64,000 bases of DNA, from assembly GCA_043228905.1 (NCBI GenBank), contig JBHGNT010000020.1, positions 12,896,001 to 12,960,000 of the forward strand. The letters are read 5' to 3'. The translations under genes and the position numbers were made by a program. The notes below the pieces were generated by a model, which saw only the letters and a program-made list of their open reading frames with translations, was not told the DNA's origin and ran no database searches. Origin of the DNA: Azolla caroliniana. Taxonomy: Eukaryota > Plantae > Polypodiophyta. Shown piece after piece: positions 5,136-63,237 of the stretch (the stretch's first letter is position 1; the number at the start of each line of letters is the position of its first letter).

Positions 5136-5138
5136 ATT

Positions 5139-5406
5139 TGTTGAAAAACAGTGCTCGGCCACAACCGAGGAATAGGATCAACTTTCAGAAAACAGGAAAT
5201 ACAAAGTGCACCAAGGACAATAGTGAGAGAAAGGTACACTGGATGTTTTACGTGGAAAACCCTAAATGGGGAAAAACCACGGGAGTCCTCAAACTCCAAC
5301 TATCAGTATAAACAGAGATGTACAATGGTGAAGCTACAAGGCAACAACCTTGAGCTCACTGTCTTCGCCACAGGCGGCGGCAGTACACAGAGGCAACGAC
5401 CTCTTC

Positions 5407-5459
<53 letters not shown>

Positions 5460-5790: not shown

Positions 5791-6870
5791 CTCTTACGAT
5801 ACTACTAGCCTCAATGCCACTACTCAATACAGTGTTTGCCCTAGGTCATATTTATACTAATATGACTTTCGGGCTATTTACAAGTATAGCCACAATGGGC
5901 TAACAGAAACATATTTACATCTATGTCCCTTCATGCGGTTCTCACCAGGCCTTCCTTGCCGGGTACTCATCTCCCATCTGAAGGAACCGAAATCCTAACA
6001 GGATACAGATCCAATCAACAGGGTTGGAAGAATGAAGGAGGACGCGCGTGCATAACACGAGTAGGTTACGAAGAAATTTTCAAAGCCGGAGAAGGATCCA
6101 CCACACTTGTACCAGAGACCCTCGGCAACTCAGTCGGGGTGGCGACGGCTGGCGTGGCAAGCATAAGCCCAAGGTGATAAGCAGGTGGGGCCGAGAGGTT
6201 GAAGGCAATGTCGGGCGACGATGCCGGGCCCAACCGACGTGACACGGAGACGACGGGTCGTGCGGGCCAAAAGACAAGCTTAGGGTGATCTTGTGCGGGT
6301 AGCTACCCGGAAAGCTACCAAGGACACCCAAGCGGATAACGGTGTGCCGAGCTGGAAAGGGCACACCCGGAGGCGAGTCAGAAGGCATGCGTGTGGCCAC
6401 TGAGGGCCGAGGTATGAGCACGGGGAGAGAATGGAGTTCGGCACGGGTGGCGTCGAGCGAAGGAGGACGGCAGATTGAGCCTCTTGCGGGGCGTAGTCAA
6501 GGGTTACGCGGCACACGGAGGCGCATGGATGAGAATACGGGTGCAAAGACAGTTTGCTCAGGCCGGTAGCCTCGAAGAACATCGAAGGCCCAAGAAGGAT
6601 ACTTCACACCAGTTCCGGATACCCCAACAGTGCGGCCGACGTGGCAACCTGAGACCGAGGGAGATGGACGATGATGGCAAGGGGACAAGGGCAATGGCGA
6701 ACAACGGCACCAGACAAGCAATAAAGGCATCGCAGAGATCGACGGTGGCCAAGCGGGCTACTACGGGATGCTCCTCGAACACGGAGGACATCAGGTGTAC
6801 GACGTAGAAAGGGGCATGCATACGGTCGGTCGAGGGCTGCGAGAGGAGCACACGTACGAAAAGAGATCAC

Positions 6871-8955: not shown

Positions 8956-9729
8956 ACAAAGGATGCTTCATCGAGAAAGATGGTCGACTCATAGCTAAGG
9001 GATGGAGAGACAACCGAATGTTCATTCTCAATTCAAACGAGGTGAAATCAGCCATGTATGCCAAAGGTCTCAAAACCGAGACAAGCATTGAGTTGTGGCA
9101 CAAGAGAATCAGCCACATCAACCTCCAACATCTCCGAGCTATGCAAACAAAGGGAGTCGTCATCGGACTTCCGACCTCCGAGTTGAAACGAGTCGACCGA
9201 GTGTGCGAAGTGTGTCAACTCGGCAAACAACATCGACTCCCATTTCTGAAGGAGAGCTACGTAAGCAAAGGCCTCCTTGATGTCATACACTCGAATGTAT
9301 GGGAACCAACTGAAACGCCGACGATCGGTGGATGCCGATACTACGTCACCTTCATCAACAACAATTCCCACTACACGTGGATCTTTCCAATGAAGAAGAA
9401 GAGAGAAGTGTTCTTCCACTTCCAAAAGCTCAAGGGCCAAGTCGAAAACGAAACCGGTTGGCACATTCGATGCCTATGATTGGATGGAGGCAAGGAGTCC
9501 TTCTCCAACGAATTCATCTCCTACCTCCACGGTGAAGGCATCCAGAGAGAATTCTCATGCCGACGCACACCCCAACAAAATGGAGTTGCCGACAAGAAGA
9601 ATCAGCACGCACTCAAGGTAGCATGCGCCATGATGCATGAGAAGCACATGTTAAACTTCTATTGGGCCAAAGCGGCATCCACGACCGTCTATCTCATGAA
9701 TCGATGCACCACTAATGGAGTGCATGAGC

Positions 9730-10174
9730 TGTTGAGATATCAAGCTCAACTAGTTTAATCTAGTTAGTCAACACATGTAACTTAGTAGTTACCTAGATCG
9801 AATCTAGTTAATGTGTCGACCTTAAGCCTTTAAATAGGACCTTGTACTTAAGTGGGATATTCTAGATCCTCCACTCCTTAGTACATTTAATGTAGGACTT
9901 ACACATAAGTACCTATGTTCTACCCACACATGTGCACCTTTGCACATGGGTTGTATATATACCTCATTGTGGGTATTTTTGAATGTTGATGACACTTTTC
10001 AATATAGTCAATCATCCCCCATTTATCATCGTGTTCAAGTGTAACTTCCTCTCTCTCTCTCTCTCTCTTCCTCTCACACACTCTCACGCGCATATCATAC
10101 TAATCTTCCGCTGCTTAATGTAACCATATAATTAGTCTCTAATTAACCCTAGTTAATTACCTAATTACTTAACA
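9730..10174 (+). repeat. 5' LTR
   Basis: tgttgagatatcaagc...ttacttaaca, followed directly by the PBS. Confidence 0.95.
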
Positions 10175-10350
10175 TGGTATCAGAGCGCGTGGTTTAGGAA
10201 ATCCACTAAGCCCATCGCTTATTCGTGATTGTGTGTTCGAGACGCCGACGACAAATCCCGGCTATTTGCTATCCGCTACCGTAGTGCCGCTACGAAGGAC
10301 GTGTACGCGACCAAGAGAAGAAAAACAAAACGGAAGACACAACAATCAAC

Positions 10351-11283
10351 ATGAACAAACAAATGGGAAGCTCACTCCCTAGTGAAAAGCTAGACCGAAG
10401 CAACTATTCATCTTGGGAGTACAAGATGAATCAATACCTTGTCGGCCAAGGGTATTGGAGCTACATCAACGGAGCACAAGAAAACAAACCCGAAACCACA
10501 CACGCCAACTACCCAACATGGGAGCAAGGAGTGAGTCGGGTAATGTATTGCTTGGCAACATGTGTAAACGATCACATGCTTAGCCACATTCGTGACGCCA
10601 AGACGCCCAAAGAGGCGTGGGAAAATCTCAAGAAAATTTTCGCCGCGGACACATCCGCGCGCAAGCTTCAACTTCGGCAAGAGTTGAACAACATACGACA
10701 AAAAGAAATGTACGTGACGGACTACACCGCCAAGATCAAGAGCATTTGCGACTCTCTTGGCTCCATCAACGTCAACATCAACGAGGACGAGATGGTGCAA
10801 GTATGCTTGGGCGGCCTTGCACAACGATTCAACCCGTTGAGAACGGCAATCTTGGCAAGAGATACCCCTCCCTCGTTCTTCAACCTCCAATCAATGTTAT
10901 TGGTCGAAGGAAACCACGTTCAACCAAAGACCAACACATCGGAAGGACAAATGCTCTTCTCCAATACGGATGGTGCCCATAGACGAGGTCGACGCGGAAG
11001 AGGTCAATTCGACCTATCCCACGAAGGGAATTCACAATTTCGGCAAGGAAACGGAAGCCATCGAGGAACCTTCACAAGAAGTGGGAGCTTCCACGCCGAA
11101 CAAGGTCGGCGAACGACGCCACCTACGTGCAACTATTGCGGCAAAATCGGCCATCGCGAAGAGGAGTGCCGAAAAAGACGAAGCGAGTCGGCCTCAACAA
11201 GCCGGCAACTCACAAATTACGCCGCGAACGCGGAATACGCAGACTACGGCGGACTACGGCGGACTCTTCGTGATGAGGCATAG
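10351..11283 (+). CDS. Copia Gag, open ORF; the last residues are out of frame after a 10-bp duplication
   Basis: KLDRSNYSSWEYKM...AWENLKKIF and zinc knuckle CNYCGKIGHREEEC. Confidence 0.85.
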   Translation: MNKQMGSSLPSEKLDRSNYSSWEYKMNQYLVGQGYWSYINGAQENKPETTHANYPTWEQGVSRVMYCLATCVNDHMLSHIRDAKTPKEAWENLKKIFAADTSARKLQLRQELNNIRQKEMYVTDYTAKIKSICDSLGSINVNINEDEMVQVCLGGLAQRFNPLRTAILARDTPPSFFNLQSMLLVEGNHVQPKTNTSEGQMLFSNTDGAHRRGRRGRGQFDLSHEGNSQFRQGNGSHRGTFTRSGSFHAEQGRRTTPPTCNYCGKIGHREEECRKRRSESASTSRQLTNYAANAEYADYGGLRRTLRDEA

Positions 11284-11988
11284 AGCAAACTCTATGATGG
11301 CCTCCGATCCCGCAAACTCCGCAAGCACCTCCAACTCCGAACACACGTGGTTCGTAGACTCCGGCGCCTCGCACCACATGACGTCGCACCAAGAGTGGTT
11401 TCGCGACTTGCGAATGCCGGATCGACCCAGCTACATAGAGACCGGAGATGACACTCGGCATCCCATTCGACACATCGACGATGTCCCATTCGGGAAAGAA
11501 GGCGAGCAAACTTGCACCAAGAATGTGTTGCATGTGCCCACAATAACAAAGAATTTGGTCTTGGTCGGCCAAATCGTGGAGCAAGGCATGCAAGTCCGCT
11601 TCAACAATGAAGGTTGCTTCATCGAGAAAGACGACCGACTCATAGCCAAGGGACAGAGAGACGGTCGCTTGTTCATCCTCGACTCAAACGAGGTAAAATC
11701 GGCCATGTACGCCAAAGGTCTCAAGACCGAGACAAACATCGAGTTGTGGCACAAGCGAATCGGCCACGTAAACCTCTAACAGCTTCGCGGAATGCAATCA
11801 AAGGGAGTCGTAATCGGACTCCCGGCCTTCGAATCGAAACGAGTTGACTGAGTGTGTGAAGCATGCCAACTCGGCAAGCAACATCGACTCCCATTCCCGA
11901 AGGAGAGCTCCACAAGCAAAGGCCTCCTCGACGTCATACACTCGGATGTATGGGGACCGGCTCAAACGCCGACGCTCGGCGGATGCCG
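11262..11988 (+). pseudogene. Copia protease, pre-integrase and integrase start, disrupted
   Basis: WFVDSGASHHM, NVLHVPTITKNLV, LWHKRIGHVNL*, HSDVWGP...GGCR. Confidence 0.85.
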
Positions 11989-12159
11989 CTAGTGCACTGT
12001 ATAAGGAGTTCCGTTATAGCCATCTCTCTTATACGCTACTAGGATATGGGGAGATATCCTATTACATATTAAGGTACGTCGGTACCATTCATTGCAACGC
12101 AATCACCTTGAGGTCTAGGTCGAAGGACTGACTATAGACCGTGTTCCTAATCGGTAACA

Positions 12160-13135
12160 CTACAGGTTGCTGAAGAAGGGGTGTAAATTCAAATGGGGTG
12201 AGGAGCATGCGGAGTTGGTTCGTAGACTAAAGGGGGCGCTAACCGCGACACCGACACTCCGGAAAGCGGTTTACGGCAAGAACGTCCCAATTTACATTAC
12301 GGTAGACACAAGCCCTACCGGGATAGGATGGGTGGTCAACCAGGAGGACGAAGCTGGCACGAGGTTCCACATCTGGTTCGGAGCGAAGGTGCTGAGTTAG
12401 TGACAGCGAGGATACGCCCAAGTTAAACGCGAGCTCTGGGGTATCATTTCGGCAGTCAAGGCTGATAAAGACTACTTGATCGGAACGAAGGTGATAATCA
12501 AGACGAACTGCCTACCGATCCTTGGTATGGTTTTCGGATGCGCGACACTGGACCTGGCAATGCTCAGTTGGATCGCGTACATTAAGTCTCTGAACCTGGA
12601 GATACGGCACATGTCCGGTAAAGACAACGCCATGGCCGACATGCTTTCTAGAGCACGGTTCAATGACGAGGATGGCATGGTTTCGGAGGACAAAGAAGTT
12701 GGCGTAGACTTCTTCGAGTCAGCTTGAGTGACGACAAGGGCGGGGACCACTCCGGTGCTTAACAAGTTCAACAAAGGGGGGTACGACGAGGAGTGGCTCC
12801 AGATCAGCAGGTTCCTGGAAACAATGGTGCCAGACACGGCATGGACAAGGGAAGAGGCTGGTTGGATCCGGAGGAAGTCGTACCGATTCTTCCTATGGGA
12901 TGGGGACATATGGAAACTCCCGAAAAAGAGAGGTGGTGTTCCACTCTGCGTAATGGCGGGGAAGGCAGAGCAAGCGGCGTTGTTGACGGTGTATCACGAG
13001 AGTCCTTGGGCCGGACACCACGAGATATGGGCCACATTCGAATAGCTAAAGGAGAAGTATTGGTGGTCGGGGTTGTACCGAGACGTGTACCAGTTTGTAA
13101 CAACATGCGAGAGCTACCAAATGCAATCCGTGATC
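12160..13135 (+). mobile_element. Ty3/gypsy pol fragment (RT thumb, RNase H, integrase H2C2 zinc domain) with stops
   Basis: LLKKGCKFKWGEEH, ITVDTSPTGIGWVVNQ, GKDNAMADMLSR, HESPWAGH...YWWSGLYRDVYQFVTTCESYQ. RH precedes IN, which is gypsy order. Confidence 0.88.
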
Positions 13136-14335
13136 GGTCGGCACATTCGATGCCTACGATCGGACGGAGGAAAGGAGTACTTCTCCGACGAGTTCACCTC
13201 CTACCTCCAAGGTGAAGGCATTCGTAGAGAATTCTCATGCCGACACACTCCCCAACAAAACGGGGTAGCCGAGAGAAAGAATCGGCAAATACTCGAGGTA
13301 GCACGCGCCATGATGCGTGAGAAGCACATGTTGAACTTCTATTGGGCAGAAGCGGCATCCACGGCCGTCTATCTCATGAATCGATGCACCACAAATAGCG
13401 TGCACGAGCTTACTCCATATGAGATCATCGTTGGAAGAAAGTCCATCCTCTCGCACCTCAAGGTGTTCGGAAGCATTGCGAATGTACGCATCCCGAACGA
13501 AAGTCGAGAGAAGCCCGACGCGAAGTCGGAAGAATGTATCCTCATAGGATACTTGTCCGCAAAAAAGGCGTACAAGTGCTTCAACCCTTCAACCCGAGCG
13601 GTGCGGATAAGTCGCGATGTCGTTTTTGACGAATCGGCATCTTGGTATAAGCCCGATGCGACTCCATCCGACCCAATCGAGGAAGAGTTGAACGCCAACT
13701 CGGACGACGAAACTCGGCCAAGTCCTCCACCGAAGGACAATCCAAGCTCTACCGAGCTAATTGGCCCACAAGAGCCTCCATGCGATGAAAACACGTTGCG
13801 GCCAAGTTCGACATCGGACAAAGGCAAAGGTAAGATGCCCGAATACGAAGTCGAGGTCCACCCCAACGACCGTGATTCGGATGATTCGGCTCGCTCATTA
13901 GACAGTGAGTTCGGTGTACCCATCATGAGGACACCCGGAGTAAAGAAGGCGCTCACATCGACAAACGAGAAACTCCGCCACTCATCACGAGCGAAGACCC
14001 AAATCACTCGTTACGCCTACAACGAGTATATGGCCCATCACTATACCCTCGCGATGAAGGTAGTGCATGAACAAGAACCCGAGGATCCAAGCCTTCGTCG
14101 CAGGCTTGAGGGGGAGAACAAAGTTGCGGAGAACCGCGCAACGAAGCCGCGAATACGCGAAGAAAGTTGCGCAATGCCGCGCAACAAAGCTGTGGAGAGC
14201 CGCGCAACAAAGCCGTGAAGACGCGAAGAAAGCCGCGCAACACTGCGAAGAAAGCCGCAAGCCGTACCGATGCTGACGAAGCCAAAGGAAGCTAAACCGG
14301 ACGTTGGACGCCTCACACTTGAGCTTGAGGGGGCG

Positions 14336-14780
14336 TGTTGAGATATCAAGCTCAACTAGTTTAATCTAGTTAGTCAACACATGTAACTTAGTAGTTACCT
14401 AGATCGAATCTAGTTAATGTGTTGACCTTAAGCCTTTAAATAGGACCTTGTACTTAAGTGGGATATTCTAGATCCTCCACTCCTTAGTACATTTAATGTA
14501 GGACTTACACATAAGTACCTATGTTCTACCCACACATGTGCACCTTTGCACATGGGTTGTATATATACCTCATTGTGGGTATTTTTGAATGTTGATGACA
14601 CTTTTCAATATAGTCAATCATCCCCCATTTATCTTCGTGTTCAAGTGTAACTTCCTCTCTCTCTCTCTCTCTCTTCCTCTCACACACTCTCACGCGCATA
14701 TCATACTAATCTTCTGTTGCTTAATGTAACCATATAATTAGTCTCTAATTAACCCTAGTTAATTACCTAATTACTTAACA
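14336..14780 (+). repeat. 3' LTR
   Basis: Direct repeat of 9730-10174. Confidence 0.95.
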
Positions 14781-15430
14781 TGAGCTAACTCCATACGAGC
14801 TCCTTGTTGGAAGGAAGTCGATCTTGTCGCACCTCAAGGTGTTTGGAAGCATTGCGAATGTACGCATCCTGAACGAAAACCGACAAAATCCCGACGCGAA
14901 GTCGGAGAAATGTATCCTCGTAGGATACTCGTCCGAGAAGAAGGCATAACGTGCTATAACCCTTCGACCCGATCGGTTCGGGTGAGTCGAGACATAGTCT
15001 TCAATGAATCGACATCATGGTATAAGCCCGATTTGGCTCCACCCGACTTGACCGAGGAAGAGTTGAATGTCAACTCAGAGGACGATTTTCGGACAAGTCC
15101 TCTACCAAAGGACAATCCAAGCCCACCCGAGCCTTCAAGCATTCCAAGCACGTCACAACCAAGTACAAACTTGGACAAAGGCAAAGGTAAGATGCCCGAA
15201 TACGAAGTCGATCACCCTGACGACAATGATTCGGATGTGTTGGCTCTCTCACTAGACAATGAGTTTGGTGTACCCATCATGCGAACACCCAGAGTAAAGA
15301 AGGCACTCACATCGGCGAGTGAAAAACTTCGACACTCATCTAGAGAGAAGAACCTCGTCATTCGGCTCGGCTACAACGAGTATATGGCCCATCATGATGC
15401 CTTTGCGATGAAGGTAGTGGTCGAACAAAA

Positions 15431-21383: not shown

Positions 21384-21827
21384 ATATACATTTACGAAAA
21401 GAAAGAAAGAAAAAAAGAGCATTAAGTATTGGGATCTCGGATCAAAGACTCAAAAAGCATATATTCTAGATCGATTCTCCTATCATCATCATCACCATCA
21501 CCATCACCATCCAAAAAAAGAGCATTAAGTATTGGGATCTCGGATCAAAGACTCAAAAAGCATATATTCTAGATCGATTCTCCTATCATCATCATCACCA
21601 TCACCATCACCATCCATAGCCGTGAATATAACGAAATTAGCAGAGTATTAGGTAGGTACACAGGCAAGCTCTGAGAGAGAGAGTTGGGGGTTTAATAACA
21701 AATATACATTTACGAAAAGAAAGAAAGAAAAAAAGAGCATCAAGTATTGGGGATCTCGGATCAAAGACTCAAAAAGCATATATATTCTCCTATCCTCATC
21801 ATCATCATCATCATCATCCATAGCCGT
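21384..21827 (+). repeat. Three imperfect copies of a ~100-130 bp unit directly upstream of the PSAT1 ATG
   Basis: aaaaaaagagcattaagtattgggatctcggatcaaagactcaaaaagcatatattct...(cat)n recurs at about 21411, 21514 and 21729. Confidence 0.9.
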
Positions 21828-21837
21828 ATTGGTAACC

Positions 21838-24800
21838 ATGGGATGGAGGAGCTTTATCTGTGTGTTGTTCTTTTACATTGGTTACTGCTGTGGTTGTTCG
21901 TTTGTTAGAGGAGCAGGAGTGGATTCAAAACAATGGGCACATCACAATGCTAAGCTTTCGGGTGTTATAATCCCTGGCTTGGCGAGTACAAGGTTGAGAG
22001 CTTGGGCCTTGTTGGATTGCCCGTTCTCTCCTCTAGATTTCAGACCCCTCGATCCTGTGTGGCTCGATACTAGAAAGGTATGTTGGATTGTCTTTCTTGC
22101 ATTTGATTATGCTATGTTGTATTGTATGGATTGACTCTACTTTCCTCTTTTGAAATTTGATTATACTATGTTGGTTTCTTGTTGCATTGTCTGAATTCAT
22201 ACTTCTAAAGAGTTATATTGGCTTTTTTCTGCATTGTATATAAATGTATCTGGTCTCTTTTTGTATTTTCTGGCTTGATGCAGAAAATTTACGTTTTTCT
22301 TTTGCATTTCTAGGCTTGGTACCGAAAATGTATGTTGTTTTCTTGCGTTGTCTTGCCTATCTACAACTTCTAGGTTGATCCTAGGGGTTCATGTGCTTTG
22401 GCTTATATCCTAGGGTTAAAAAGAAGGAACTGCAAGGATTCAATAAATATTGATTATTGGGTGGCTTTATATCATAAGAAACCCTCGAAATATAGAAATA
22501 CTGGGCTAATATTGTAGCATTTTATAAAACTTAGCTCATATTTTGATGGATATTACTATTAAATTCTTAGTTCTGTTTGCAAAATTGGGTCATTGACCTG
22601 ATATCTCATTACCTTGTCCTATTTTCAGGTAATATCTGTTCCTAATTGCTGGCTCAAGTGCATGCTATTGGAACCTCACAATCAAACAGATCATCCTGAA
22701 TGCAAATCTCGTCCTGACTCCGGTCTTGCTGCTATAACAGAGCTTGATCCAGGGTATATCACAGGTTGCTTTGTAGTGTTTTTCTTCCACTATGCAAAAA
22801 TGCCTTTGTGAAAGAATATTGGGGCAAGAAGTAATTGTATCCTGGCTGTTTTTAGGCCCATTGTCATCAGTTTGGAGAGAATGGGTTAACTGGTGTGTTG
22901 AGTTTGGCATTGAAGCTGATGCAATAATTGCTGCACCTTATGATTGGAGACTGTCTGGACCAATGCTTGAGGAGAGGGATCTTTATTTTTACAGATTGAA
23001 GTAAGCCTTCAAAATGCATTTGAATATTATTGCAAATATATTATATTTTTGTTTAAGGTCAGTCATGGAATACTTTGACTTTTGGGACTTGGTAACTGGG
23101 TTGGTTTGTGGAAGTACGATATGGTAAAAGGGATCATGTAATGAACTGTAACCATAGGTTAGGAACATAAAATGATAGGAAAGGGGCACTTTTGGAATGA
23201 GTAGAATTAGCCTCTATTTAGAACATCAAATCATCATCATAAAAGCAAAATGTTGGTTGTGAGGCTCATTCATGAGCTACTTAAGAAATAAGAATGAAGA
23301 TACATGCAAGATGATGGATGCATGATCTCCTCTTCACACCATTCCTGGCTACATAAAATGTAATGATCCTCCAAATTGGCTGCTACTATACCATGCTCAG
23401 GCTCTCTCCCCAACAATAATTTCAATCTTAACTTATGATAATCAAGTTTTGTAAGTGTTGACCGGATCCCTTTTCCACCGATCCGTAGTTCGTGATCCGT
23501 AAGACTCACCTGTGTTTTGGAGACGGTTGGGTGCCTCCAAGGGAGGGCGGGCAGTTTTCGGTGGGAGGAGTCCAGTAGGCCCCTTTCTCGACATGCTATG
23601 AGGCTCTAGAGGAGGAAATTATCCCATAGAGTGAGTTGCGCCTGTCTTGCCATGGAGCAACAGCAGCGTCCGGATAATCTATCTATCTGGCAATTCATCT
23701 GGTGGCTTCGCAGAAGCCAAGGAAGCCCCAGGAAGCATCAAACATCTCCAAGGAAATCCATGGCCACCTGTTTGTGTGGTTAGCTGCCAGGAAATGATCA
23801 TACTTCTTGTGCATGTGTCAAGTAAGGTTGCTCGGTGCTGGCCCCCTCAGAATAAGGTGGATACTAGTCTAACTTCTGCTCCCTGCAGAAGAGATGTAGT
23901 CGTAGTAGTTTCCAATGGTCGATGATCTCGCTTACAAACCCACAAATAGCACATGGCAATCATGATGAGCTACGCCTATGGTAGCATACAAGCGTACTGA
24001 ATGTTGTTCAATTGTGGTGACTCTTATGTCACCAACCACCACGCACACACTTCTCCAAGAGATGCACTTTGGTCAAAGCCTGGATACCTCCCATGCTCCT
24101 ATCTTACCACTGATGATTCCCTGACTGATGATCATCACCATCCCCTCAGAGGACCAATTACTTTTTGTCCTTCAACTCATTATTCTGGTTTGATCAGACC
24201 GTGGCGCCCGACAAACAGAGCATTATTAATGTGGGTAACATATAGGATGAGAAATGCTACCATGGTTAATCCCATCCTTCCATTGCCGCTAAATTCCAGC
24301 ACTTTTTTTCCTTGCTCCTGTTTTGAGGAAGGTGCCATCTGGCATTCCTACCCCGAGTATTGAGACAAGGATGAGGATGATGCCAAAGCTCATCTCTCTG
24401 CCTTCCTCGCCACATGGCAATTGGTCCTCTATGGCCATGGGGATGATTGCTGGGGAATCTTGGGTGGTCAAATAAGAACTGAGGCGAACCATATGTTTCA
24501 ATGTTTATGCTGGGATGCATCTCAGATTGCCTTCTGCACTGACTTCCTGCAGATGTTCCTCCAGAAGATCTCTTCCAAAGAAAAAACGATTGACATCTAG
24601 TACCAAATCAAATGCTGTAAATATAACTTGTTGGCCAAAACCACAACCAACATTCAGTGCCTGGAGCCTCCTGATAAAAACTTTTACCTATCCTGACCAC
24701 CCCAGTGAGAGCCCCAAACAGAAACACTTTTACCCTGATACCATCTGCATCTATGATCATGGTGACCACCAACAATAATGCAACATTGATTGTGACTACT

Positions 24801-37554: not shown

Positions 37555-40500
37555 CTAGACCTCAGCTGTGATCGACATTGAGCTCCCACAACAGTGAAAT
37601 ATTCCAACCATGGTCGTTGCTTGTTCATATAGTTGTGGCCGATGAGAAACTATGATATACTGGGCTTGACCTTGCTTCTGTGCCAAAAGAAAACAACTTT
37701 CACAGTGCACATTAAGATAGATTTATGCCAAATAAAAGGAAACACTAAAAAATAAATTTATTAGTAGAAAATTCATTAGCTTTAGAAGAAATTATCTTCT
37801 AGTAACAAGTAATGACGAGCTAGCAGACATTCATGCATAGAATGCCAACGAAGAAATTGAAGAACTATGGAAACTCTGAGGTAATCCTCAGGTTTTCTTT
37901 AGTTTAAATAGAATTTCTCCAAACAACGTTGGTCAACTGCTGAAAGAGATGAATTTGATGATACAATTTTTCAAAGAATACATAATTGAGAACAAGGGGG
38001 ATGGATTAACCAATATAATTGCTCCAAAATCTTCTTCAGGTTAGACAAAGCGCATTTAGAAGTATTGCAGAAACACTACGGCAATCGGGGAAATAAAGAA
38101 AAAACTATGAAACGTATGGTAAATGATAAGATTTGAAATAGAAAATCTCAGAATTAACAGAGTCCACCTTGACATAGTCGGCTACTAGTTGAGCATTCTT
38201 GGTGTCCAAAGCAGCATCAATCTCATCAAAGAAGTAAAATGGTGAAGGGAACTGCAGCTGCAGACTGAAGGACAGAGCAAGAGCGGCCAATGATTGTTGG
38301 CCTCCAGATAAAGAGCTGAAACTACACCATTTATGCCGACCTGGCCGCACTATTTACAAGCAAAAAGTACTATTTTTGAGAGGGGTATTCTGGTAATTGC
38401 TATAACACTTATGGATAGTTTGGCAAATAAACAATCCCTAAGGCTATTTAGGTGTTTTCCCTATTTTCATATTTAGGAAAAATGTGTAAATAGGGCATCA
38501 ACAGTAAGTGCATAATGTCTCCTATAAAGCAACCAAATCCATTGAAGCAGTAAGGAAATATACTAGTATTGTAATTACCTTGGAAATTCACACCTTCAGT
38601 GAAAAGAAGTCTTTTCTCTTCAGTGAATGATAGATAAGCATCCCCATGCTTTGTGAGTTCACCATAAATACGTGTGAGGTCGACATTTACCTAAAACAAG
38701 AACAGAAGAAATGTTATCATCTGATCAATTGCATTTGCATGGTAAAGATAGTTAAATAAACACAGTGATTCTATGCGAAATGGATATGAAATAAACATAA
38801 CAAGGAAAGAAACAGAGGACAAACCTTTCTTATTGACACCCTAAAGATTTCAAATCGTTCATTTTCAAGTGCTTCTTTTCTCAATTTCATAGAGTTCAAG
38901 AGTTCCTCAATTTTCTCAGTTTCCTTTAGAAGATGGGACTCGACTTTCCTACAGTTAAGATCCTCATCCAGTGTTCTTGGATCAATTGAACTGTCAAAGG
39001 TAACACTCCACATTGTTTAGTTGTATAAGTGAGCTAATAGACAAAATAGGGCGTTTCACCTATGAAGTCGCTTTAGAGACAATTCTTCTTCAGCCAGAGT
39101 TACACCTTCTAAATCTTCGTCCTTCCCCCCAAATTGATTCCCCTCACTGGAGAATTTGAAATCGTGGTAAATCCTTTTCACCTGACTTTCCTCAGAGCCC
39201 TCATCCAATTCATGAACAATTTTGTTAAGTCTGTCTCTCAATTCAGATGTTGACTCAGATATATTTTCAAGCCGTTTCTGGATCTTGACCTGGAAAAGCA
39301 TGTTAATCCTCTCTTCATCTAGAAAGAAAATGATGTATCAAAACTGTTGCACAATGATTCTAGAACAAAAACAAACTTCTTCTTTCAATAGAGCTGTTAT
39401 TTCAGTCTTATGCTTATATGCTTCCTCGTTTAGTTCTCGTATTTTTTGAGAAATAATCTCAACTTCAGCTGTCCTGCAGATGTCATAGGAGATTTCAGTA
39501 TTCCAATCAGCATGCCAAGAGTAATGTGCTTGTTATTTAATAGTAAGACAATCACCGATCAGAAAAGGAATCCATACATTTCATTGCTTTGAATTCTTTT
39601 CTGCTCTAGTTTTACTGTTAATTGCGAATGTCTTATTTTTAGTTCTGCTAGAACTGTCTTCTTGTTGGCAAGTTCCACAGATAAGCTTTGTTCTTTTTTT
39701 ACTTTCTTCGACAATTTGTTCATGCAGAATTGAGTCTGTTGAGCTTCCAACTCACATTTTTTAATTTCTTCATCCAAAACATTAACATTTCTTCTCCATA
39801 CTTGCATCTCAGGTAATACGTTATGAGTCGTGGAGTACTCAAGATCCATCATCACACCATGAAGCTGTGCTTCCTTATCATGCTGTTTTTTTGCTTTAGC
39901 ATTCATGATGAATAACATCTCCTTCTTCTCCTCTAATAGTGAACTCAGCAAACTCAAATGATCACTTTTGCTTCCATCAAGCTTCTGCAATTCTTTTTGA
40001 AGCTCCCTCTCTTTTGATTTTAGTGTATTGATCTTAATCTCGTAGTTCACAAGTTCTTCCTTGCACACTTTTTGTCTTGCCATGACAATGTTCAATTCAT
40101 CCTCATGGTTGACCATAGAAGATTCTAGACTAGGATTTTTGCAACCTTGTAATGAGTAATTAATCTGGTTCTTAATTGCAGCAACAACCTCCCCATCCTG
40201 AAATCATGCATTTGAAATCATGAATACCCATAATTTGATTATTTTCTGTGTCAAATAGAGGATAGGAATGTGATGTTATTACATACATGTTTAAAAATGT
40301 CCCCCTTAAGAGTCACTACATTTCTCTGAAAAACATTGGTTTTCTTTCTAAAATACGAAATTGCTGCATCCCGATCCTTTAAAATAATCCAATTTTTGGT
40401 GTACTTCCAGAAAATTGGTTTATAGACATGTGCACACTGAAGGTACTCCATCACTGATTGCTCTTGCCTAAGATCTGACATATCATCGGACTGTTTATAG

Positions 40501-43500
40501 AACCCATGTGCCTCTGAAAGGATTTCGCAAGTCACGACACCAATCCGCTGAGACTGAAAATGATGGATCACTTCATCTGCAGTTTTGCGATCTTCAGTTA
40601 CAAACCTGGATTATGAACGTAAACAAACATTATTGATTTGATCTTGCAGAAATGAAAGGAAAAACGTGCAATGTTATTGAACTTGCATAATATGGGGTCA
40701 TTCTCAGTAGTGTAACACCCACATCTTACAGCCATAGAATTGAGATGGATCCTTGAAATACAACATAAAATTTATGGATATACAGCAATATTAATTCAGT
40801 TTGATTATATATTCCTTTTATTGCGACAATGCTCAAGCCACAGAGATAGATAGACAAATATAGGTCACCTACGTCATTGATGTGTTTATCAAATGGCTCA
40901 TAACAGAATTAGCTGCCTGCTTCATGTTGTCCTCAACCTTTGCAAGGTCTATCAAACGACCATGGAATTTCTCTTTCAACTTCACCCTGAGTACTTCCAA
41001 AGCTTTATCCACCCTTGAGACTCTGCTTAGTTTATTGTGAGAGTTTTCGATTTCCTTCCTCAGTTTAAAGAGTTCTAGCTAGAATAATTGTTTCAAAAGA
41101 CAAAAATAGAAAGCTATTGGCCATCAATGTATCAGGTACCTACGCTGTGAAATTAATATCAATGCATCCGGTTTACCTCATCCCTTTTCAATGATTCTTT
41201 AAGATTGACAATTCTGGTGGAGACCTTTGTGGACTCGGAAATTGTTGCTCGCAACACTTCCTGAAGAACTGCAATATCTTCTTCTTGTTTCTTTTTCTTT
41301 TCGGTCATTTCAACACAGCGTTTTTCTATTGAATGAATCTGGGAGGATATCAGAGGACACTAAGTTTACATTGCAACGAAACGTTTCTGAACAAATATAT
41401 GAATAATTAAAACGAAAAATGCAGATCATGTTCAACATGTTTAGGAAAAGGTCTTAGATATTGCATGGTAAAATACTTGGGCTGTAATATTTCAACGTGA
41501 ACATAGAAAGAAATTTCTGAGAGATAAATAAAAACTCGTGTGAAAACCATGGAAATTTTCCATTAGAAGTCAATTCTTGCTGCCAAGCTTTAAACAGTCA
41601 CATTGGAATTCAAATATAATCAAAATGCTTAGATATGAATGTAAAAAGAAGTTTAAAAAAATGACAGCAAATAAACAGAAGAGATAAAATCATGAAAACC
41701 TTTGTATTTAAAACTCAGTTCTCAGTATTATATCGCTGCAGTCGTAATGACAAACGAAATATTTCAGCAGTGAGTGCCAGTGACAACCTTCCAAGATGAA
41801 TGTGTACCAATGAACCTAGCAGAATGAGAACTTAGAGCAGACTAAGGCAGTGACTGTAATATATGATTGTTTTTCATGAGAAAGTTAAATAATGAAATAA
41901 GTTGATAGAAAAGGGGGTCAAATAGCGTCTACTAAGTTAATTTACTAGGTACAACAATAGGAGACATCAGAATTCAGAGTTAAAGAAAGCAAATTGTAGC
42001 ATAGGCATAAGAACAAGTAACAAAACCCCTACCAATTTAGATATGGAATAACATTTAATTCTGAAATTTCTTAAGGATCCCAAAAATACCTAAATTTAGA
42101 TAACATGCCATAAGACTGGAGAAACAGCAATAAAAGATACCTCTTCTTTAATTTTGGATGCTATAATGGAATCATTTTTTATCTCTTCTCTGATGTCAGA
42201 CAAAGCTTCCTAATAAAGTAAACAAGAGTAACTCAGCATGAGCATAGATCTTATAATTGTAAGAGATTCATACCTTTTTCAAAGCTTACATGAATCTTTG
42301 AGATTTCCTGAGATGATTCATCCTCAGCATCTTCAGTAGCAGATATCAAGTCATGATTATGGTTCATAATTCCATCAAGACTTTGGAATAATCTCGGTTT
42401 CTTTTTTGCCAGCTCTTTTCTTTGTTGTTCCAGTGTTTTCTTTTTCTCCTTGATGTTATCAAGAATCTTAGAGAGAGATGCGAGTTCATTATCCATTGCA
42501 TGTCGCTGGTTATGCATGAGCAAATATTCATTTTCTTCAATTTCAGCATCTTTTTTTGCAGCACTGAGACGTACCTGCAAAGTTCCTCTATTAAATTATC
42601 ATATAATCCTCTACCCTGACACAAGATTTTTACTGAAAAGAAAACAACATGCCTGTTTAACAAAAGACAGCAATATTAGGCCATACTGTCAACAGTCTAA
42701 ATGACAGATTATCAATGCAAACAATGTACTAAGGCAATATTAAGTGTCTAAAGTAGGAAGATAATTATGAAGAGCCAAACCTTTTCTTTTAATTGTTCCT
42801 TCCGTACTTCAGCAACATGTTTCTCAACACCTTCTACCTCCTTTTGTCTTTGTACCAATAGATAATTTAAATCAGCAATCTGTGAATTCCCTGATATCAG
42901 CAGCTCTTGTAAAGCCTACCTTCCAATGAAGGGCAACAATGATTTCCCAAAAATAGAGGCTAAATTAAAATTGCAATCCGAGGATACATGACGTTTTTCC
43001 TTGATCTTGCATACTTCTGCATACGCAATGTCCTTCTGAGCTACATTCTGTTGCAGCTTATATCTCAATGAATTCTCTTGGAATTTCAAATAAGTGATCT
43101 TCCTCAATTGGAAGTCGTGCCATTTGCTATTGAAACTGTAACAGAAAGAAAGTGTTAATTAACCAGACTTGATTCGCTTATTAATAGAGGATGTGCCATA
43201 ACCTAGTCGCTATTGGTAAACTTCGTTGATGCAAATCCCAACAATTTACAGACAACCAAGAAAAATGAAGGGTATGTTTCTGACCTGATGGCACACACAC
43301 TTTGTTTGAAACAATTTTATTTTTGAATGTAGTGCATATTTCTGTGAGACTGCACACACTACATACATATCAAATCCACATGATGAATGGAACTTAAGTT
43401 AGGTCACTCCACGGCTTCTTCATCATAAGGAGCATATCTTACAAAACTAATAAGAACGGTTCGAACTCCTGCATATGTCAACATGCTCACATATTTCTGT

Positions 43501-46500
43501 GAGACTACACGTACAACATATCCAATCCACAGGATGAATGGATCTTTAGTTAGGTCACTCCATGCCGTCTTCATCATTTGGAGCACACCTTGCAAAACTA
43601 ATAAGAACAGTTTTGACTCCATTATATGTCTACATGCTCACATATTTCTGTGAGACAATACAATAACATACCAAATCCACAAGAAGAAAGGATCTTCAGT
43701 TAAGTAACTCCACGCCTTCATCATTAGGAGCATATCTTGCAAAATTAATAAGAACGGTTCCCAATCCTTTATATGTTAACATGCTCAAATGCATGCATGA
43801 CAATGCCTTGTGATCTTAGAGCCATGTCCTACTGGGATTTAGAAAAAACATAAACTTAAAATACGTGGTGTTTCACCTATAAAAGTGAGCTTTTTAGCTG
43901 GTTGATGTTTTGAAAAATCCTTAATATTGATGAAGTTTCACGTTTTCAAAGTTTTAGTATCTCTGCCAAAAATAATACAATTAGATTTATTCAATTAGCA
44001 GATCAGTGTGGGATAATGGTAAAGCTACTAAAACCTCGTCGGACGTGACTTTTAGAGAACTTAGCATTCTGAATTTATGATACATCGACTATATGCGTCG
44101 TAATGGGAGATACCAATATTGTGAAGGTGTTATTCCAGAATTCTTCAGGTTTCCATTTCAGGATGATTACGTCATAAAGAAAGCATCTCGAAATAAGAAT
44201 AGCAATAGAGTAATGATTGAACTGAGACAATTTATCTGCAAATACCCTTCATTTACCTCTGCCAATTCTTAACTTCAGGTTGAAGCACTTCTATCCTTGA
44301 TTGTACCTCAAGAAGTTTTTCTTGCAGGGAACGGCTTTCAATGAACTTCTCAGATATCTCTGCATCTATTTCTTTGACCAGTTCTTTGAAATGAGCTGAT
44401 CCAAATATAACTTCTAGATACTGGGAAAAGGGAAGTGATCTAACCATTAGAATCAAACACCATATTGCCGGAAAACACAAAATCAATTCAATAGCCACAA
44501 TTTTTAAGGAATCACCTCACACAATTCAGATGGCTGCTTTGCTTTGACCGCATGTCTACTTTGCATAATTATAAATCTGATGTAAAACGGTTAGGAATAG
44601 AATCCGCACAACATGAATTCAAGCTTTAAGAATTTTCCAATGGTATGTATATGTTTTCTCATACCTCTCTGTAATATCTGCAGAAATACCAAATTTTGAT
44701 AGTTCTTCTTTCAGCTCTAGAAAGGAGAGCTGTCTGAATCAAAATTCAATGGGGACGAAAAAATCTGTCAGACAAAAGATTTTACAAGAGCCGATTGAAA
44801 ATTAAAGGTTTTAAAATCTTTTACTTATTACTAATTCACCTCTTTCCCCCTTCTGAGTTTAAAAAATAATTGCTGGTAGATCCACTAATAACTCTCGACA
44901 CTCTAATAGAATGTCTGCCAATGGCTTCTAATGTCACTGTAACCTTCCAAAAAAACGTGAAGTTTACTTTCCATTCCCGTGAAGTTCAATACAGTACTGT
45001 TGTTGATGCATAGAAATAGCAGGTATAATGTGTTTACACAACAGCTTTGATTCATTTATACTGACCATGAATCAATTTTACAGTTTTCTCGTACATCTTT
45101 GATGGAACCAACAGAATTCACAGGAAATGGAAAAGTTTTTTTGCTGTGTGTACTATGCTTAAACTGGACACATTCAGATACGTACGTTGCACGACGAAAG
45201 AATTACCATGATGAATATTGACTCCTACGTGTGATTTTGACACAAAATCATTGCTTATTCTATGTAGAATCATTTAGTAGTTTGTACTGGTCATATAGCA
45301 GTTGTTAGAATTGAAAGAAAGAGACATGAGAGTGTGAAATATAAGGCCATAGATAAGTTACTTCCAAATATTGCGATGAAAATGTGTTCCAATAGGTTAC
45401 TTCCAAATATTGCAATGAAAGTGACTGGGATTTTTGTACGAAATTATTGTTTGTTTTACATACAGACGGGGAGAGAGAGAGAGAGTATGTAGTACCTTGG
45501 CCACAGACGTCTGCTTACTGTTTCTCATGTCTTCATTCAAAAGGCCGAACAAAGACTTGGTTCTCAGGTTTTTTGCAGAACCTCCAAAAACAAAGCCGAG
45601 GGCTTCCCCAATGACCTGAAATAATTAGGAAAGAGAACTTTATTCAAAAGTTATCCAGATTAAATTACGTTGAGAAAGGAATAAAGAAGAAAGCAGAAAG
45701 CAGAAAACTGCGCAGTTTTTCAAAGCAAAGGGAAATTTGGACAGAAGCCAGTTCGTTCTTCTCTAAAAGCATCAGTTTAAACGGGGATGAAAGGAAGAAC
45801 TGAGAAAGCATCTAAACATTGGCTAGTAAGCATAAGATTCTGCATTTTCTTGAAGCAATAATGAGAACAGTATCTGAGCTGTACCTAATCAGGAGAGACG
45901 GTAAAAGACAAACAAAGGAATATTGTATACTGAGTAGAAATTAGTAGAGAACTGCACATTTTCTTAAACAAATTCATGGTGGAAATAAAAAGTAGAGAGC
46001 AACGCAACTTCTTGAAACAGAATAGTGCTGCTTTTGAAAGGAATCAGCTAGTATTTAGAGCCGAAGAATGAATTGCTACATATGTTAGCATAAAAGCATG
46101 TGTTTTCTAGTTGAAGCAAACGGAAATCAGCAGAAAACTGTGCATTTTCCAGTTGAAGTAAATTCATGGAAACCAGCTGAGTCAGAACAAACTTGTATAA
46201 ATCAGCAGATTAAAACAGTGCGTTTTCTTGAAACGGAAAAGCACTCCTTCAGAAAGAAAGCAGCTTGAGTAATACGAGTCAAAGAAGAACAAAGTGCGTG
46301 TAAATGAGCAGAAAACGGTGTGTTTTCTTGTTGAAGATAATGGAAATCAGCAGAAAACTGTGCATTTTCTAGTCGGAGCAAATCCATGAAAAGCAGCAAA
46401 AGTATTCGACTTGTAGATCAGTAGATTAAAACCATTTTCTTGACGCAAATACCCCCCAGAAAGAACTGTGAAGTTGGAGCACATTCATGGAAGCTAGCAG

Positions 46501-47087
46501 AACACCGTACATTTTCTTCAAGCTAGTTTTTCTTGTAACCGATTCATGGAAATTAGAAGGAAAGAAGCCAATTTATTAAAAGAACTATAAACGGTTTCAT
46601 TTTTTCAAGCACATTTACAGGAATTAGTAGAAAATGGGACCTTTTCATAACGCAAACTCATAGAAATAAGTAGAAAAACGAGCATTGTCTTCGTAAAAAT
46701 CCGTGGAAATCAGCCGAAAACTGAGCATTTCCTGGTTGGACAAATAATGAGAAAAGATGAATAAATATATATGCATACACTCTTGCCAGCACCATTAGGT
46801 CCAACGATGCAGGAGAAGTCTGAGAGAGGGCCGATCTTTGATTTCGATTTGAAGCTCTTGAAACCTCGGATGGAGATCTCCTTCACTTTCACCGTTGCTG
46901 CCATATCCATAGGAACTTCATCTGATTCTCTGCTACTTCCTCTTCCCGTTAAGGAGTGCTTACATGATAATCCATGGTGATCAGCCTCGACATTCATATT
47001 AATCTCCTCGGGTGTCAGAATGGAGCACTTCGGGATATGGAGGAAAGGCTTACAAGATAATCCTTCCTGGTCAGCCCCCGCATTCAT
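37555..47087 (-). CDS. Divergent SMC-family ATPase, closest by motif to SMC4; 20 exons, ~1217 aa
   Basis: Minus-strand GT-AG exons: 47087-46779, 45615-45496, 44943-44840, 44733-44665, 44576-44516, 44420-44257, 43135-43015, 42915-42781, 42574-42290, 42209-42141, 41338-41177, 41078-40873, 40605-40287, 40197-39578, 39473-39377, 39289-39060, 38990-38825, 38690-38579, 38349-38168, 37677-37555 (3654 nt, phases consistent). Motifs: GFKSF, Walker A GPNGAGKS, Q-loop RFIIMQ, coiled coils, hinge FHGRLIDL...VTLKGD, signature LSGGQ, Walker B/D-loop FFDEIDAALD. The start codon is uncertain. Confidence 0.88.
43335..43787. repeat. ~152-bp tandem repeat x3 in SMC intron 6
   Basis: catatttctgtgagac...aactaataagaacggtt...acatgctca starting near 43335, 43490 and 43641. 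Confidence 0.9.
45690..46735. repeat. Degenerate ~43-bp minisatellite filling SMC intron 1
   Basis: Recurrent (ggaaatc)agcagaaaactgtgcattttc variants, for example at 46125, 46345 and 46709. Confidence 0.65.
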
Positions 47088-47224
47088 ATTATTCTCCTGA
47101 GGAGTCAGTGTGGGGCACTTCAGGCCATGGAGGAGGACAGGCTCTTTCTTCAACCTTCCATATCTATCTTCCTGATGAGGGTGGTAGTGCTCTCTCTCTC
47201 TCGATCGCACAGCGAAAACACTGT

Positions 47225-47570
47225 TTAATTAATTGCATGTAAAAAACACCAATATATTGTCAAATAACAACCTTAATTGTAAACTAATTGCATTTAAAAT
47301 CACTAATAACAAACTTAATTTAAAATTAATTGTATGTTAAAACACTAATAACAAAGTTCATTTTAAACTAATTGTATGTAAAAACACTAATAACAAACTT
47401 CATTTTAAACTAATTGTATGTAAAAACACTAACAAACTTCATTTAAAACTAATTAATTGTATGTAAAATCACTAATAGCAAACTTCATTTAAAACTAATT
47501 AATTGTATGTAAAAACACTAATAATAAACTTCATTTAAAACTAATTAATTGTATGTAGAAACACTAATTA
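47225..47570. repeat. AT-rich ~40-44 bp tandem repeat, ~8 copies
   Basis: aattgtatgtaaaaacactaataacaaacttcatttaaaact units just upstream of the SMC gene. Confidence 0.9.
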
Positions 47571-60791: not shown

Positions 60792-60973
60792 TCGTTCGCA
60801 TTGCCAGAGACTTTGGTTCTGCTGGTGGTTCTCGATCTTCTGTGTGGCCTACATATATAATACGCGCTGCTGCTGCTCTGCTACGGTTCGTTATCATTCG
60901 TTAACTAACACGATCCCGACAGGTTTAAGAAACGACAAGAAAGAAAACAGAAGGGGGGGAGGGGGGGTGTGTG

Positions 60974-61579
60974 ATGATGAATATGAAGGAGAAGATGCAG
61001 TCGCACCACCATGGCGGGGTGCAGTGCTGGCCGTCATCGGCGCTGCACCCGATGCTGCGAGCCAGGAGCTCCTGCGGCAGCCAGGCGGCGGCGGTCACGC
61101 TGATGTCGTCGGGGATGGGCCCGGACGGCGGGGGAGTTAACGGCGGCGTGGGCGGCGCCGTTAGTGTAAGCGGCGGCGGAGGAGGAGGAGGAGGTGGAGG
61201 AGGCGGCGGAGGTGGTGGCGGAAGTGGAGGCGCGACGGCGGCGTGCGTGGAGACGATCCTGAGGCTGGCGGGGGAGAGCGCGGTGGTGATCTTCAGCGTG
61301 AGCACGTGCTGCATGTGCCACGTGGCGAAGCAGCTGCTGGGGGGACTCGGGGTGAACCTCACGGTCTACGAGGTGGACGAGGTGGCGGACGGAAGGGGCG
61401 GGGCTCAGCTCATGGCGGCCTTGTCCTTCCTGGTGGGCGGCGGCGTCGGGGGATGCGAGCCCGTGCCGGCCATTTTCGTGGGTGGGAAGCTGGTGGGCGG
61501 CCTGGACCACGTCATGGCCGCCCATATCAGCGGCGCCCTCATCCCCCTCCTCAAACAGGCCGGCGCCCTCTGGCTCTAA
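60974..61579 (+). CDS. CC-type glutaredoxin (ROXY-like), intronless, with a Gly-rich N-terminal extension
   Basis: VVIFSVSTCCMCHVAK active site, VPAIFVGGKLVGG, LIPLL and terminal GALWL. Confidence 0.93.
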   Translation: MMNMKEKMQSHHHGGVQCWPSSALHPMLRARSSCGSQAAAVTLMSSGMGPDGGGVNGGVGGAVSVSGGGGGGGGGGGGGGGGGSGGATAACVETILRLAGESAVVIFSVSTCCMCHVAKQLLGGLGVNLTVYEVDEVADGRGGAQLMAALSFLVGGGVGGCEPVPAIFVGGKLVGGLDHVMAAHISGALIPLLKQAGALWL

Positions 61580-62140: not shown

Positions 62141-62665
62141 ATTATAAACTCTGTTAAATTTCTAATTTTGTAGGCCGATTAATGTCCGCCATGCCCATCC
62201 CCTCCTCCTCTCCTGCTTCTGCTCAAATCGCAACAGTATATTAACTCTTAATGCTGCAGCATCGATCTCGCCTTTTTTAATTTCTTTTTAACTTCAGATT
62301 ATAAAAGGAAAAACCAAAAGTACAAACATATATATGTATAATTCCTCAGTTTTTTTTCTTCTAATTCCGCTGTCCACATTTACGTATGAATTATTCACTG
62401 GTTCTTTTTTCTTTTTCCTGTTTGTGTACACAAGAGCTTACAAAATTTGAATCTACGTGTGGAAGAGTAAGAAGATCGTGGTGAAGGAACTATCTATTAT
62501 AACTGATTGGCGCACTCTTCTTTTTAGCTCGAAGATCCGCCTTTCGTGACAGATTTTCCAGTTTTGTGTTTTGATTTTAATCTGCATTCCGATCAATGCA
62601 TGCTTTAGACGACGTAAATCTGCATGGCGCTTTCAAAAGGTGGCAAATCCGTTTAATGATCATGT

Positions 62666-63237
62666 CCATGTTATATTGTGTTGTGATAATATGAACAGTA
62701 AAAACGTGTTTCAACAACCCTAATCACTTAAACCCTCTCCATGTTATATTGTGTGTCGATATATGAATGGTAACGTGTTTCACAAAACCCTAAACCCTAA
62801 ACCCTCTCCATGTTAGATTGTGTGTCGATATATGAATGGTAACGTGTTTCACAAAACCCTAAACCCTAAACCCTCTCGAAGTTAGATTGCGTGTCGATAT
62901 ATGAACTATATGAACGATAACGTGTTTCACGAAACCCTAAACCCTAAACCCTCTCCATGTTAGATTGTGTGTTGATATATGAACGATAACGTGTTTCACG
63001 AAACCCTAAACCCTAAACCCTCTCCATGTTAGATTGTGTGTTGATATATGAATGATAACGTGTTTCACAAAACCCTAAATGCTAAACCGTCTCCATGTTA
63101 TATTGTGTCGATATATGAACGATAACGTGTTTCACAAAACCATAAACCCTAATCCATCCCATGTATATTGTCTGCTGATATATGATTGTTAACGTGTTTC
63201 AACAACCCGAAACCCGAAACCCTCACCATGTTATATT
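62666..63237. repeat. 69-bp tandem satellite, ~8-9 copies, each carrying 2-3 plant telomere heptamers (CCCTAAA)
   Basis: Unit ccatgttagattgtgtgttgatatatgaacgataacgtgtttcacgaaaccctaaaccctaaaccctct. Unit starts are near 62741, 62810, 62879, 62957, 63026, 63095 and 63161. Confidence 0.93.

Follow-up and report, generated by a model that had tools for sequence, protein, structure and literature searches.

The window considered here is a stretch of 64,000 nucleotides from the fern Azolla caroliniana (NCBI GenBank assembly GCA_043228905.1, contig JBHGNT010000020.1, positions 12,896,001 to 12,960,000 of the forward strand), and its central feature is an SMC gene at positions 37555..47087. The gene runs along the minus strand (47087 to 37555) and comprises 20 exons, with 3681 nt encoding 1226 amino acids from the first ATG. 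It is an intact, spliced, full-length SMC gene, and it belongs to a group of SMC4-related proteins termed family X. The family is well supported; a complex between X and the product of a second non-canonical SMC gene of this genome, termed Y, is put forward as a hypothesis. The exons of the X gene and their associated features are as follows, in window positions.

46958..47134, no strand: 90-bp tandem duplication in two copies, making up most of the unconserved 5′ extension
46779..47087, minus: exon 1, unconserved extension of about 60 amino acids and first head strands
46802-46779, minus: Walker A, GPNGAGKS, within exon 1
45496..45615, minus: exon 2, VIGEA helix and R-loop arginine
44840..44943, minus: exon 3, N-terminal head
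44665..44733, minus: exon 4, N-terminal head
44516..44576, minus: exon 5, Q-loop FIIMQSR, with the Gln kept and the next Gly lost
44257..44420, minus: exon 6, head-to-coil transition
42988..43135, minus: exon 7, coiled coil
42781..42915, minus: exon 8, coiled coil
42290..42574, minus: exon 9, coiled coil
42141..42209, minus: exon 10, coiled coil
41177..41338, minus: exon 11, coiled coil
40873..41078, minus: exon 12, hinge start
40287..40605, minus: exon 13, core of the hinge, carrying the family-specific strand IGVVTCEIL.E, a conserved Trp and VTLKGDIFK
39578..40197, minus: exon 14, hinge end DGEV (canonical terminal GG absent) and second coiled coil
39377..39473, minus: exon 15, coiled coil
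39060..39289, minus: exon 16, coiled coil and low-confidence acidic linker
38825..38990, minus: exon 17, head-proximal coil
38579..38690, minus: exon 18, C-terminal head
38168..38349, minus: exon 19, W-loop RPGRHKW, signature LSGGQQ, Walker B and D-loop FFDEIDAALD
37555..37677, minus: exon 20, H-loop VSH, last head strand with the SMC1/4-type glycine, and stop

All 19 introns are of the GT-AG type and the exons join in phase without an internal stop, while the other two frames of the spliced sequence contain 89 and 116 stops. The initial annotation had described a full-length model of 20 such exons with approximately 1217 amino acids, a length within 1% of that given here, and the motifs it quoted are all present as written (GKSVIGEA, FVFG, RFIIMQSRH, EYLEVIFGS, FQVRPGRHKW, LSGGQQ and DEIDAALD). 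The head-coil-hinge-coil-head architecture that it described is borne out by Pfam matches on the exons (SMC_N in exons 1, 19 and 20, SMC_hinge in exon 13) and by an AlphaFold model of the Adiantum orthologue. This model has a mean predicted local distance difference test (pLDDT) score of 77.9 and a predicted template modelling (pTM) score of 0.46, with heads and hinge mostly at 80-96 and long coils. Because the first 60 or so residues are unconserved and overlap the 90-bp duplication, translation may in fact begin with the Met at 46910 or the one at 46904.

The model aligns from end to end with the independently annotated Adiantum protein P0001 (47% identity, 1167 columns) and is collinear with Cryptomeria P0006 (36.5% identity) and the alga-like protein P0008 (25%). 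Against Adiantum, identities amount to 110/173 in the N-terminal head, 86/160 in the hinge and 125/176 in the C-terminal head, as opposed to 116/327 and 110/320 in the two coils. The heads are thus 64-71% identical and the coils 34-35%, and conservation along X appears from this comparison to track function.

The initial annotation had also made the standing of the gene depend on spliced transcripts. Among the joints listed, at least 15 of the 19 introns recur exactly, in size and place, in transcript-like contigs of close relatives; introns 3, 6, 8 and 9 are not among the 15 confirmed. The supporting contigs come from three of four runs in two studies and are mostly 90-99% alike; the RNA nature of these runs is a guess of the tool, and none is recorded as RNA. 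The remaining run, X4, is DNA-like and contains none of the listed splice joints. Two repeats lie in or beside the gene: a 151-bp tandem repeat of three copies within intron 6 (43335-43787) and a 42-bp tandem array just upstream (47285-47568).

The residues of the Walker A, R-loop, Q-loop, signature, Walker B and D-loop are all found in the window gene and are nearly invariant across X. The Walker A Lys/Ser, the Q-loop Gln, the Walker B Asp-Glu and the D-loop Asp are retained family-wide. This argues against the gene being a decaying or catalytically dead relic, as do the open frame, the splicing and heads that are far more conserved than the coils. Such a relic would account for the residue changes at Walker A +1, at Q-loop +1 and in the glycines of the hinge, and this explanation is regarded as very improbable. 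The signature LSGGQQ had also been read as a departure from canonical SMCs. This did not hold, as LSGGQ is no defect and the genome’s own SMC2 and SMC3 carry it.

Profile scores against the Protein Data Bank place X closest to SMC4 (292 bits), followed by SMC1 (232), SMC3 (149), SMC2 (125) and SMC5 (44). The nearest family is therefore not SMC5/6, given 44 bits for SMC5 against 292 for SMC4. The best fold match of the Adiantum X model is yeast Smc4 (E 9.5e-47), and X has 25% identity to plant SMC4 over conserved columns. The W-loop Trp, six residues before the signature, is present in 35-36 of 36 X sequences and in all 32 SMC4 sequences. It is absent from archaeal (0/16) and bacterial (0/12) SMCs and from SMC1 (0/16), where the position holds Phe or Tyr, never Trp. 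The X residue aligns to W1317 of yeast Smc4, a Trp that is essential according to the text available for Hassler 2019 (PMC6591010). In its architecture, best sequence and fold match, W-loop Trp and SMC1/4-type last head strand (glycine kept in 31 of 34), X resembles the SMC4/SMC2 condensins I and II.

Several other residues separate X from SMC4. The residue before the W-loop Trp is K, Q, E, R or P in X and Ser in 28 of 32 SMC4 sequences, while the D-loop Phe of the SMC4 Phe-Arg/Lys pair is replaced, with Thr in 22 of 35. In the available part of PMC6591010, this Ser and Phe of Smc4 are tied to viability or to the binding of Ycs4/CAP-D2. The Gly that follows the Q-loop Gln is universal in SMC4 (32/32), absent from Y (0/3) and not one of the six residues most often found at this site in X, which together account for 31 of 32 sequences. 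The H-loop His occurs in 27/35 X, 5/6 Y, 12/16 archaeal and 12/12 bacterial sequences, as opposed to 0/32 in SMC4, where it is always Leu; canonical SMC1-4 almost always lack it. In the hinge, X carries a Cys (33/35), a Trp (33/34) and a Glu (32/35) whose equivalents appear in 2, 0 and 0 of 32 SMC4 sequences, and these family-wide residues are absent from SMC1 as well. The first two Gly of the hinge motif GX6GX3GG are kept in X, and the last two are found in only 4 and 7 of 35 sequences compared with 30 and 29 of 32 in SMC4.

Phylogenetic trees were built from 594 trimmed head and hinge columns after partial and redundant rows were dropped, using sets of 124 sequences (FastTree) and then 81, 50, 31 and 34 (IQ-TREE). 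The reference sample consisted of 32 SMC4, 16 SMC1, two SMC2 and one SMC3, with SMC5/6 left out; the automatic SMC2 and SMC3 models had spurious inserts and gaps and were used for the trimmed columns only. X was monophyletic in all five trees, with a Shimodaira–Hasegawa (SH) support of 0.999 once and 100/100 four times, including under the LG+C20 posterior mean site frequency (PMSF) model. X, SMC1 and SMC4 formed a clan at 99.9/100 and 100/100 without Y and at 96/92 with Y. X lies in this clan and outside the SMC4 crown, most often as its sister: SMC4 was one clade excluding X (98.7-100), as was SMC1 (100/100), and the sister grouping with SMC4 received 88/89 and 84/81 under LG+C20 and 49/77 under LG+F+G4 without Y. 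In approximately unbiased (AU) tests, p-AU was 0.60 for X as sister to SMC4, 0.32 for X outside SMC1 and SMC4, and 0.09 for X as sister to SMC1. The last family belongs to the same clan and differs from X in its W-loop and its lower score.

The green X sequences formed a subclade at 100/100, with chlorophytes, Mesostigma, Klebsormidium, the lycophyte and then conifers with ferns in species order, and their grouping with plant SMC4 was rejected (p-AU 9e-43 and 1e-12). X had been proposed as a separate paralogue derived from SMC4. Its separate evolution, its relation to SMC4 as the nearest named family (sister at 88/89 under the site-heterogeneous model) and its position outside the canonical set and the SMC4 and SMC1 clades of the maximum-likelihood (ML) trees are upheld. 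Its age and range were understated, as X is no offshoot of plant SMC4 and spans eukaryotic supergroups. Because one clade spans the supergroups and a plant-lineage duplication of SMC4 is rejected, it is likely from these trees that X arose by duplication before the eukaryotic radiation and that the family predates the last eukaryotic common ancestor.

The range of the family rests on several searches. A search with exon 19 picked out 15 proteins among 228 candidates, with Adiantum (92%) at the top, then Diphasiastrum, Cryptomeria and Klebsormidium. When a seven-member X profile was run with HMMER against 1.84 billion representatives, the best 16 of the 150 listed matches were all X-type and preceded the first canonical SMC4. 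Sorting of these 150 by motif, by eye, gave 31 X-type, approximately 109 SMC4, 7 SMC1 and 3 archaeal sequences; names were looked up for 19 of the 31, of which 10 had one. A word-based search that used the X alignment overlooked known members and gave mainly prokaryotic SMCs, and the ESM Atlas yielded generic SMC clusters only.

Green members include Adiantum, Ceratopteris, Diphasiastrum, Cryptomeria, Taxus, Klebsormidium, Mesostigma and Elliptochloris, and non-green members include Saprolegnia, Cladosiphon, Vitrella, Diplonema, Anaeramoeba and Blattamonas. The family thus ranges over ferns, a lycophyte, conifers, green algae, an oomycete, a brown alga, Vitrella, diplonemids (a EukProt entry tagged ‘Hpha’ is presumably the diplonemid Hemistasia) and metamonads. 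The databases label these proteins ‘SMC4’, ‘SMC2-1’ or hypothetical. The mapping of orthologues that had been suggested covers, on the green side, green algae with Mesostigma and Klebsormidium, and among land plants a lycophyte, ferns and conifers. Among the 150 listed matches, no named one came from angiosperms, bryophytes (mosses and liverworts), animals or fungi; these absences are weak because the library lacked the known members P0007 and P0008 under their own ids.

Some members have long N-terminal extensions, of around 270 amino acids in P0029, 1010 in P0188 and 900 in P0221. The N-terminus of P0029 looks Tudor-like by eye and has no Pfam match at E 1e-4, the threshold at which no extra domain was found in 13 X proteins and one Y protein.

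An alternative to this deep origin is that only green X is a real family. The protist members would then be independent, fast-evolving SMC4 duplicates joined by long-branch attraction, and the family would be younger. The non-green branches are indeed long (0.6-1.5), and support for the branching order among them is poor; 16 of the 23 non-green members are nameless, and all were found by the X profile, so the sample is biased. Set against this, X still receives 100/100 under LG+C20 PMSF, and 23 of 23 non-green members score nearer to the green-X profile than to the SMC4, SMC1 or archaeal profiles. They also have specific residues in common with green X that go beyond mere divergence, namely the hinge Cys (20/22), the hinge Trp (21/22) and the signature Gln (22/22), and not even the green clade by itself can be traced to plant SMC4. 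This alternative is considered improbable.

Variant SMC4 subunits have precedents. DPY-27 of the nematode condensin I-DC is a lineage-specific variant SMC4 used with an ordinary SMC2. The analogy drawn by the initial annotation stands insofar as X is an additional SMC4-like subunit, which could mark out a specialised complex, but DPY-27 is probably a weaker model, as a divergent SMC2-like gene, Y, is present. X is no recent lineage-specific duplicate: it is shared across supergroups, and in Y it has its own candidate partner. In the available text of Zhang et al. (PMC10700549), Paramecium SMC4-1 and SMC4-2 are functionally distinct paralogues, one with a specialised developmental role. Unlike X, they are described as restricted to certain species of Paramecium, and SMC2-1 co-purifies with each of them. 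The accessible parts of Yoshinaga and Inagaki (PMC8665677) report additional SMC4 types in Oxytricha and in Trichomonas and an additional Paramecium SMC2, all of them lineage-specific; unclassifiable sequences were filtered out in that survey. SMC1-6 is given as the eukaryotic set there and, as far as its consulted text goes, in van Hooff et al. (bioRxiv 10.1101/2024.01.07.573240).

No description of family X was found in the literature searched, which was mostly open-access, and it is apparently undescribed; the supplements to van Hooff et al. may contain X sequences. Two candidates were rejected. Chlamydomonas ‘SMC7’, to judge from the available text of Lau et al. (PMC10473203), is a coiled-coil pyrenoid protein without head or hinge, and is unrelated although the name is taken. 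The hinge-less ocean SMCs of Actinobacteria, as presented in the part of PMC12153180 consulted, are not the same thing as X.

The candidate partner Y emerged from a Pfam scan of the genome as a second non-canonical SMC gene (C14:4834857-4845667, minus strand). Its 11 exons give an open frame of about 1124 amino acids or slightly more with intact motifs, and the protein is 52% identical to Adiantum P0145; Pfam does not detect its hinge. At least seven of its introns are found among the joints listed, in the same three runs as those of X (X1, X2 and X5), and its ninth intron, of 87 nt, occurs in one run. Orthologues of Y are found in Adiantum, Ceratopteris and alga-like records, so that X and Y are both present in this genome, Adiantum capillus-veneris and Ceratopteris. 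Of 32 loci from a metagenome scan with Y, nine were examined: Y accounts for five of them (four alga-like and one near-copy of the fern gene), X and SMC2 for one each, and the remaining two look bacterial. The near-copy (L035:2-202) is nearly identical to the last exon of fern Y and is probably plant DNA in a metagenome sample. The X member (L058:1894-6252) contains introns.

The scores of Y against the Protein Data Bank were highest for SMC2 (107), followed by SMC3 (91), SMC1 (60) and SMC4 (51). A Trp seven residues before the signature is present in 5/6 Y and 2/2 SMC2 sequences and absent in one SMC3, so Y has the spacing of condensin SMC2. The last head strand of Y lacks the glycine, as in the two SMC2 sequences compared. 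Y and X are alike in the lost Q-loop Gly and in the H-loop His. The latter is also carried by archaeal and bacterial Smc, which are homodimers; the W-loop Trp is missing from these, and X, with its 19 spliceosomal introns, falls firmly within the SMC1/4 grouping.

It is somewhat probable, on the evidence of sequence, that X pairs through its hinge with Y as a second condensin-derived DNA-folding motor. Complementarity of the two proteins and their co-occurrence in three ferns suggest this pairing. SMC subunits bind the kleisin in kappa and nu roles; X would lie on the SMC1/4 side, that of the kappa-SMC which binds the kleisin C-terminus, and Y on the SMC2/3 side. The two proteins would dimerise at the hinge; ATP would be held between their heads and hydrolysed there, as it is in condensin, and a putative kleisin would close the ring. 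As X lacks the W-loop Ser and D-loop Phe, the complex would probably lie outside regulation by canonical CAP-D2. It may loop or tether chromosomal DNA in a specialised role, presumably dispensable given that no named X match came from flowering plants, animals or fungi. That X and Y are the seventh and eighth eukaryotic SMC families, forming a fourth heterodimer beside cohesin, condensin and SMC5/6, is a more tentative suggestion with somewhat less than an even chance.

Alternatively, X could be a variant of SMC4, ancient in origin, that takes the SMC4 place in canonical condensin beside SMC2 and CAP-H, in the manner of DPY-27, and Y would be a separate matter. SMC4 is the family closest to X, the placement of Y is unsettled, Y has been seen in green lineages only, and the co-purification of both Paramecium paralogues with SMC2-1 (PMC10700549) is a precedent. 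By eye, the genome contains SMC2 (C6), SMC3 (C10), SMC5 (C1), CAP-H (C21), CAP-D2 (C33) and three RAD21/REC8 loci, and the presence of a single CAP-H and a single CAP-D2, with no dedicated kleisin found, would suit such a swap. However, the X hinge strands depart from SMC4 at family-conserved sites while the hinge of the genome’s own SMC2 is ordinary; the CAP-D2-linked Ser and Phe are absent from X; and the Q-loop and H-loop changes are common to X and Y. Substitution into canonical condensin is considered unlikely, though it is the main competitor.

A number of observations weigh against an X-Y complex as proposed above. The position of X within the SMC1/4 clan is not fixed, and two simpler-model trees with Y placed SMC1 and SMC4 together with X outside (SH 0.966; 95/97). 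Y has a very long stem and never grouped with SMC2 in the ML trees; it fell beside the SMC1/4 clan (88/67; 90/93) or weakly with X (63/83). With three SMC2/3 sequences in the set, the AU test rejected none of four placements of Y (p 0.31 and 0.46 for grouping with SMC2), and its identity to SMC2, SMC3, SMC4 and SMC1 is flat at 22-23%. Narrow searches did not find Y in conifers, Klebsormidium or non-green lineages. A search for further complex genes, as had been advised, uncovered the divergent SMC2-like Y but no additional kleisin or HAWK beyond one CAP-H, three RAD21/REC8 and one CAP-D2. The Vitrella member of X (P0156) has a degenerate signature, LSMGQ, which suggests one weakened ATPase site. 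Finally, canonical SMC4 and SMC1 were not found in repeated searches of the assembly, the final one of which scored all five candidates.

This last result bears on whether X has replaced a lost canonical SMC4 as the working condensin subunit in this lineage, since SMC2, SMC3, SMC5, CAP-H and CAP-D2 were all found. A gene that proved to be the genome’s only SMC4 had been named in advance as evidence against a separate paralogue. X is the sole SMC1/4-type gene found in the assembly, but SMC1 is missing too. As SMC3 and the three cohesin kleisins are intact, an assembly or masking gap is probably the likelier cause. CAP-D2 lies on C33, outside the low-numbered, chromosome-size contigs seen, and the SMC4 residues that contact CAP-D2 are absent from X. 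In addition, the trees indicate that the common ancestor of ferns and seed plants possessed both X (seen in conifers) and canonical SMC4 (seen in Orobanche). Replacement is accordingly held to be quite improbable. The Cnd1 family search returned ten matches, of which one is a condensin HAWK (the CAP-D2-like locus on C33), while the further matches that were inspected resemble subunits of adaptin. CAP-D3 was not seen among the ten and CAP-H2 was not searched for; condensin II may be missing or undetected in this genome.

Reconstructions of the ancestral chromosome toolkit would be altered by a conserved extra SMC1/4-type family that plants, stramenopiles, alveolates, discobans and metamonads have in common. 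Together with its candidate partner, X would be a naturally occurring variation on the loop-extrusion motor that differs in its hinge, has the H-loop His and lacks the canonical CAP-D2 contact. The apparent loss of X in flowering plants provides one concrete candidate for why chromosome organisation differs between plants, and Ceratopteris, a laboratory fern with both X and Y genes, allows testing.

The rest of the window contains Copia-type long terminal repeat (LTR) retrotransposons at 1037-5299 (minus strand) and approximately 6800-15400 (plus strand), with Pfam matches to gag, integrase and reverse transcriptase. Their repeated flanks lie near 299-1378 and 5145-5857, and further gag/pol fragments adjoin. 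The probable first exon of a signal-peptide protein is found at 21652-22131 (plus strand); it has no Pfam match, and we take it to resemble phospholipid:sterol acyltransferase. A single-exon glutaredoxin at 60929-61576 (plus strand; Pfam E 9e-11), with CCMC and a C-terminal ALWL, is presumably of the plant CC-type/ROXY kind. Near the end of the window, at 62665-63237, there is a 69-bp array with telomere-like CCCTAAA units.

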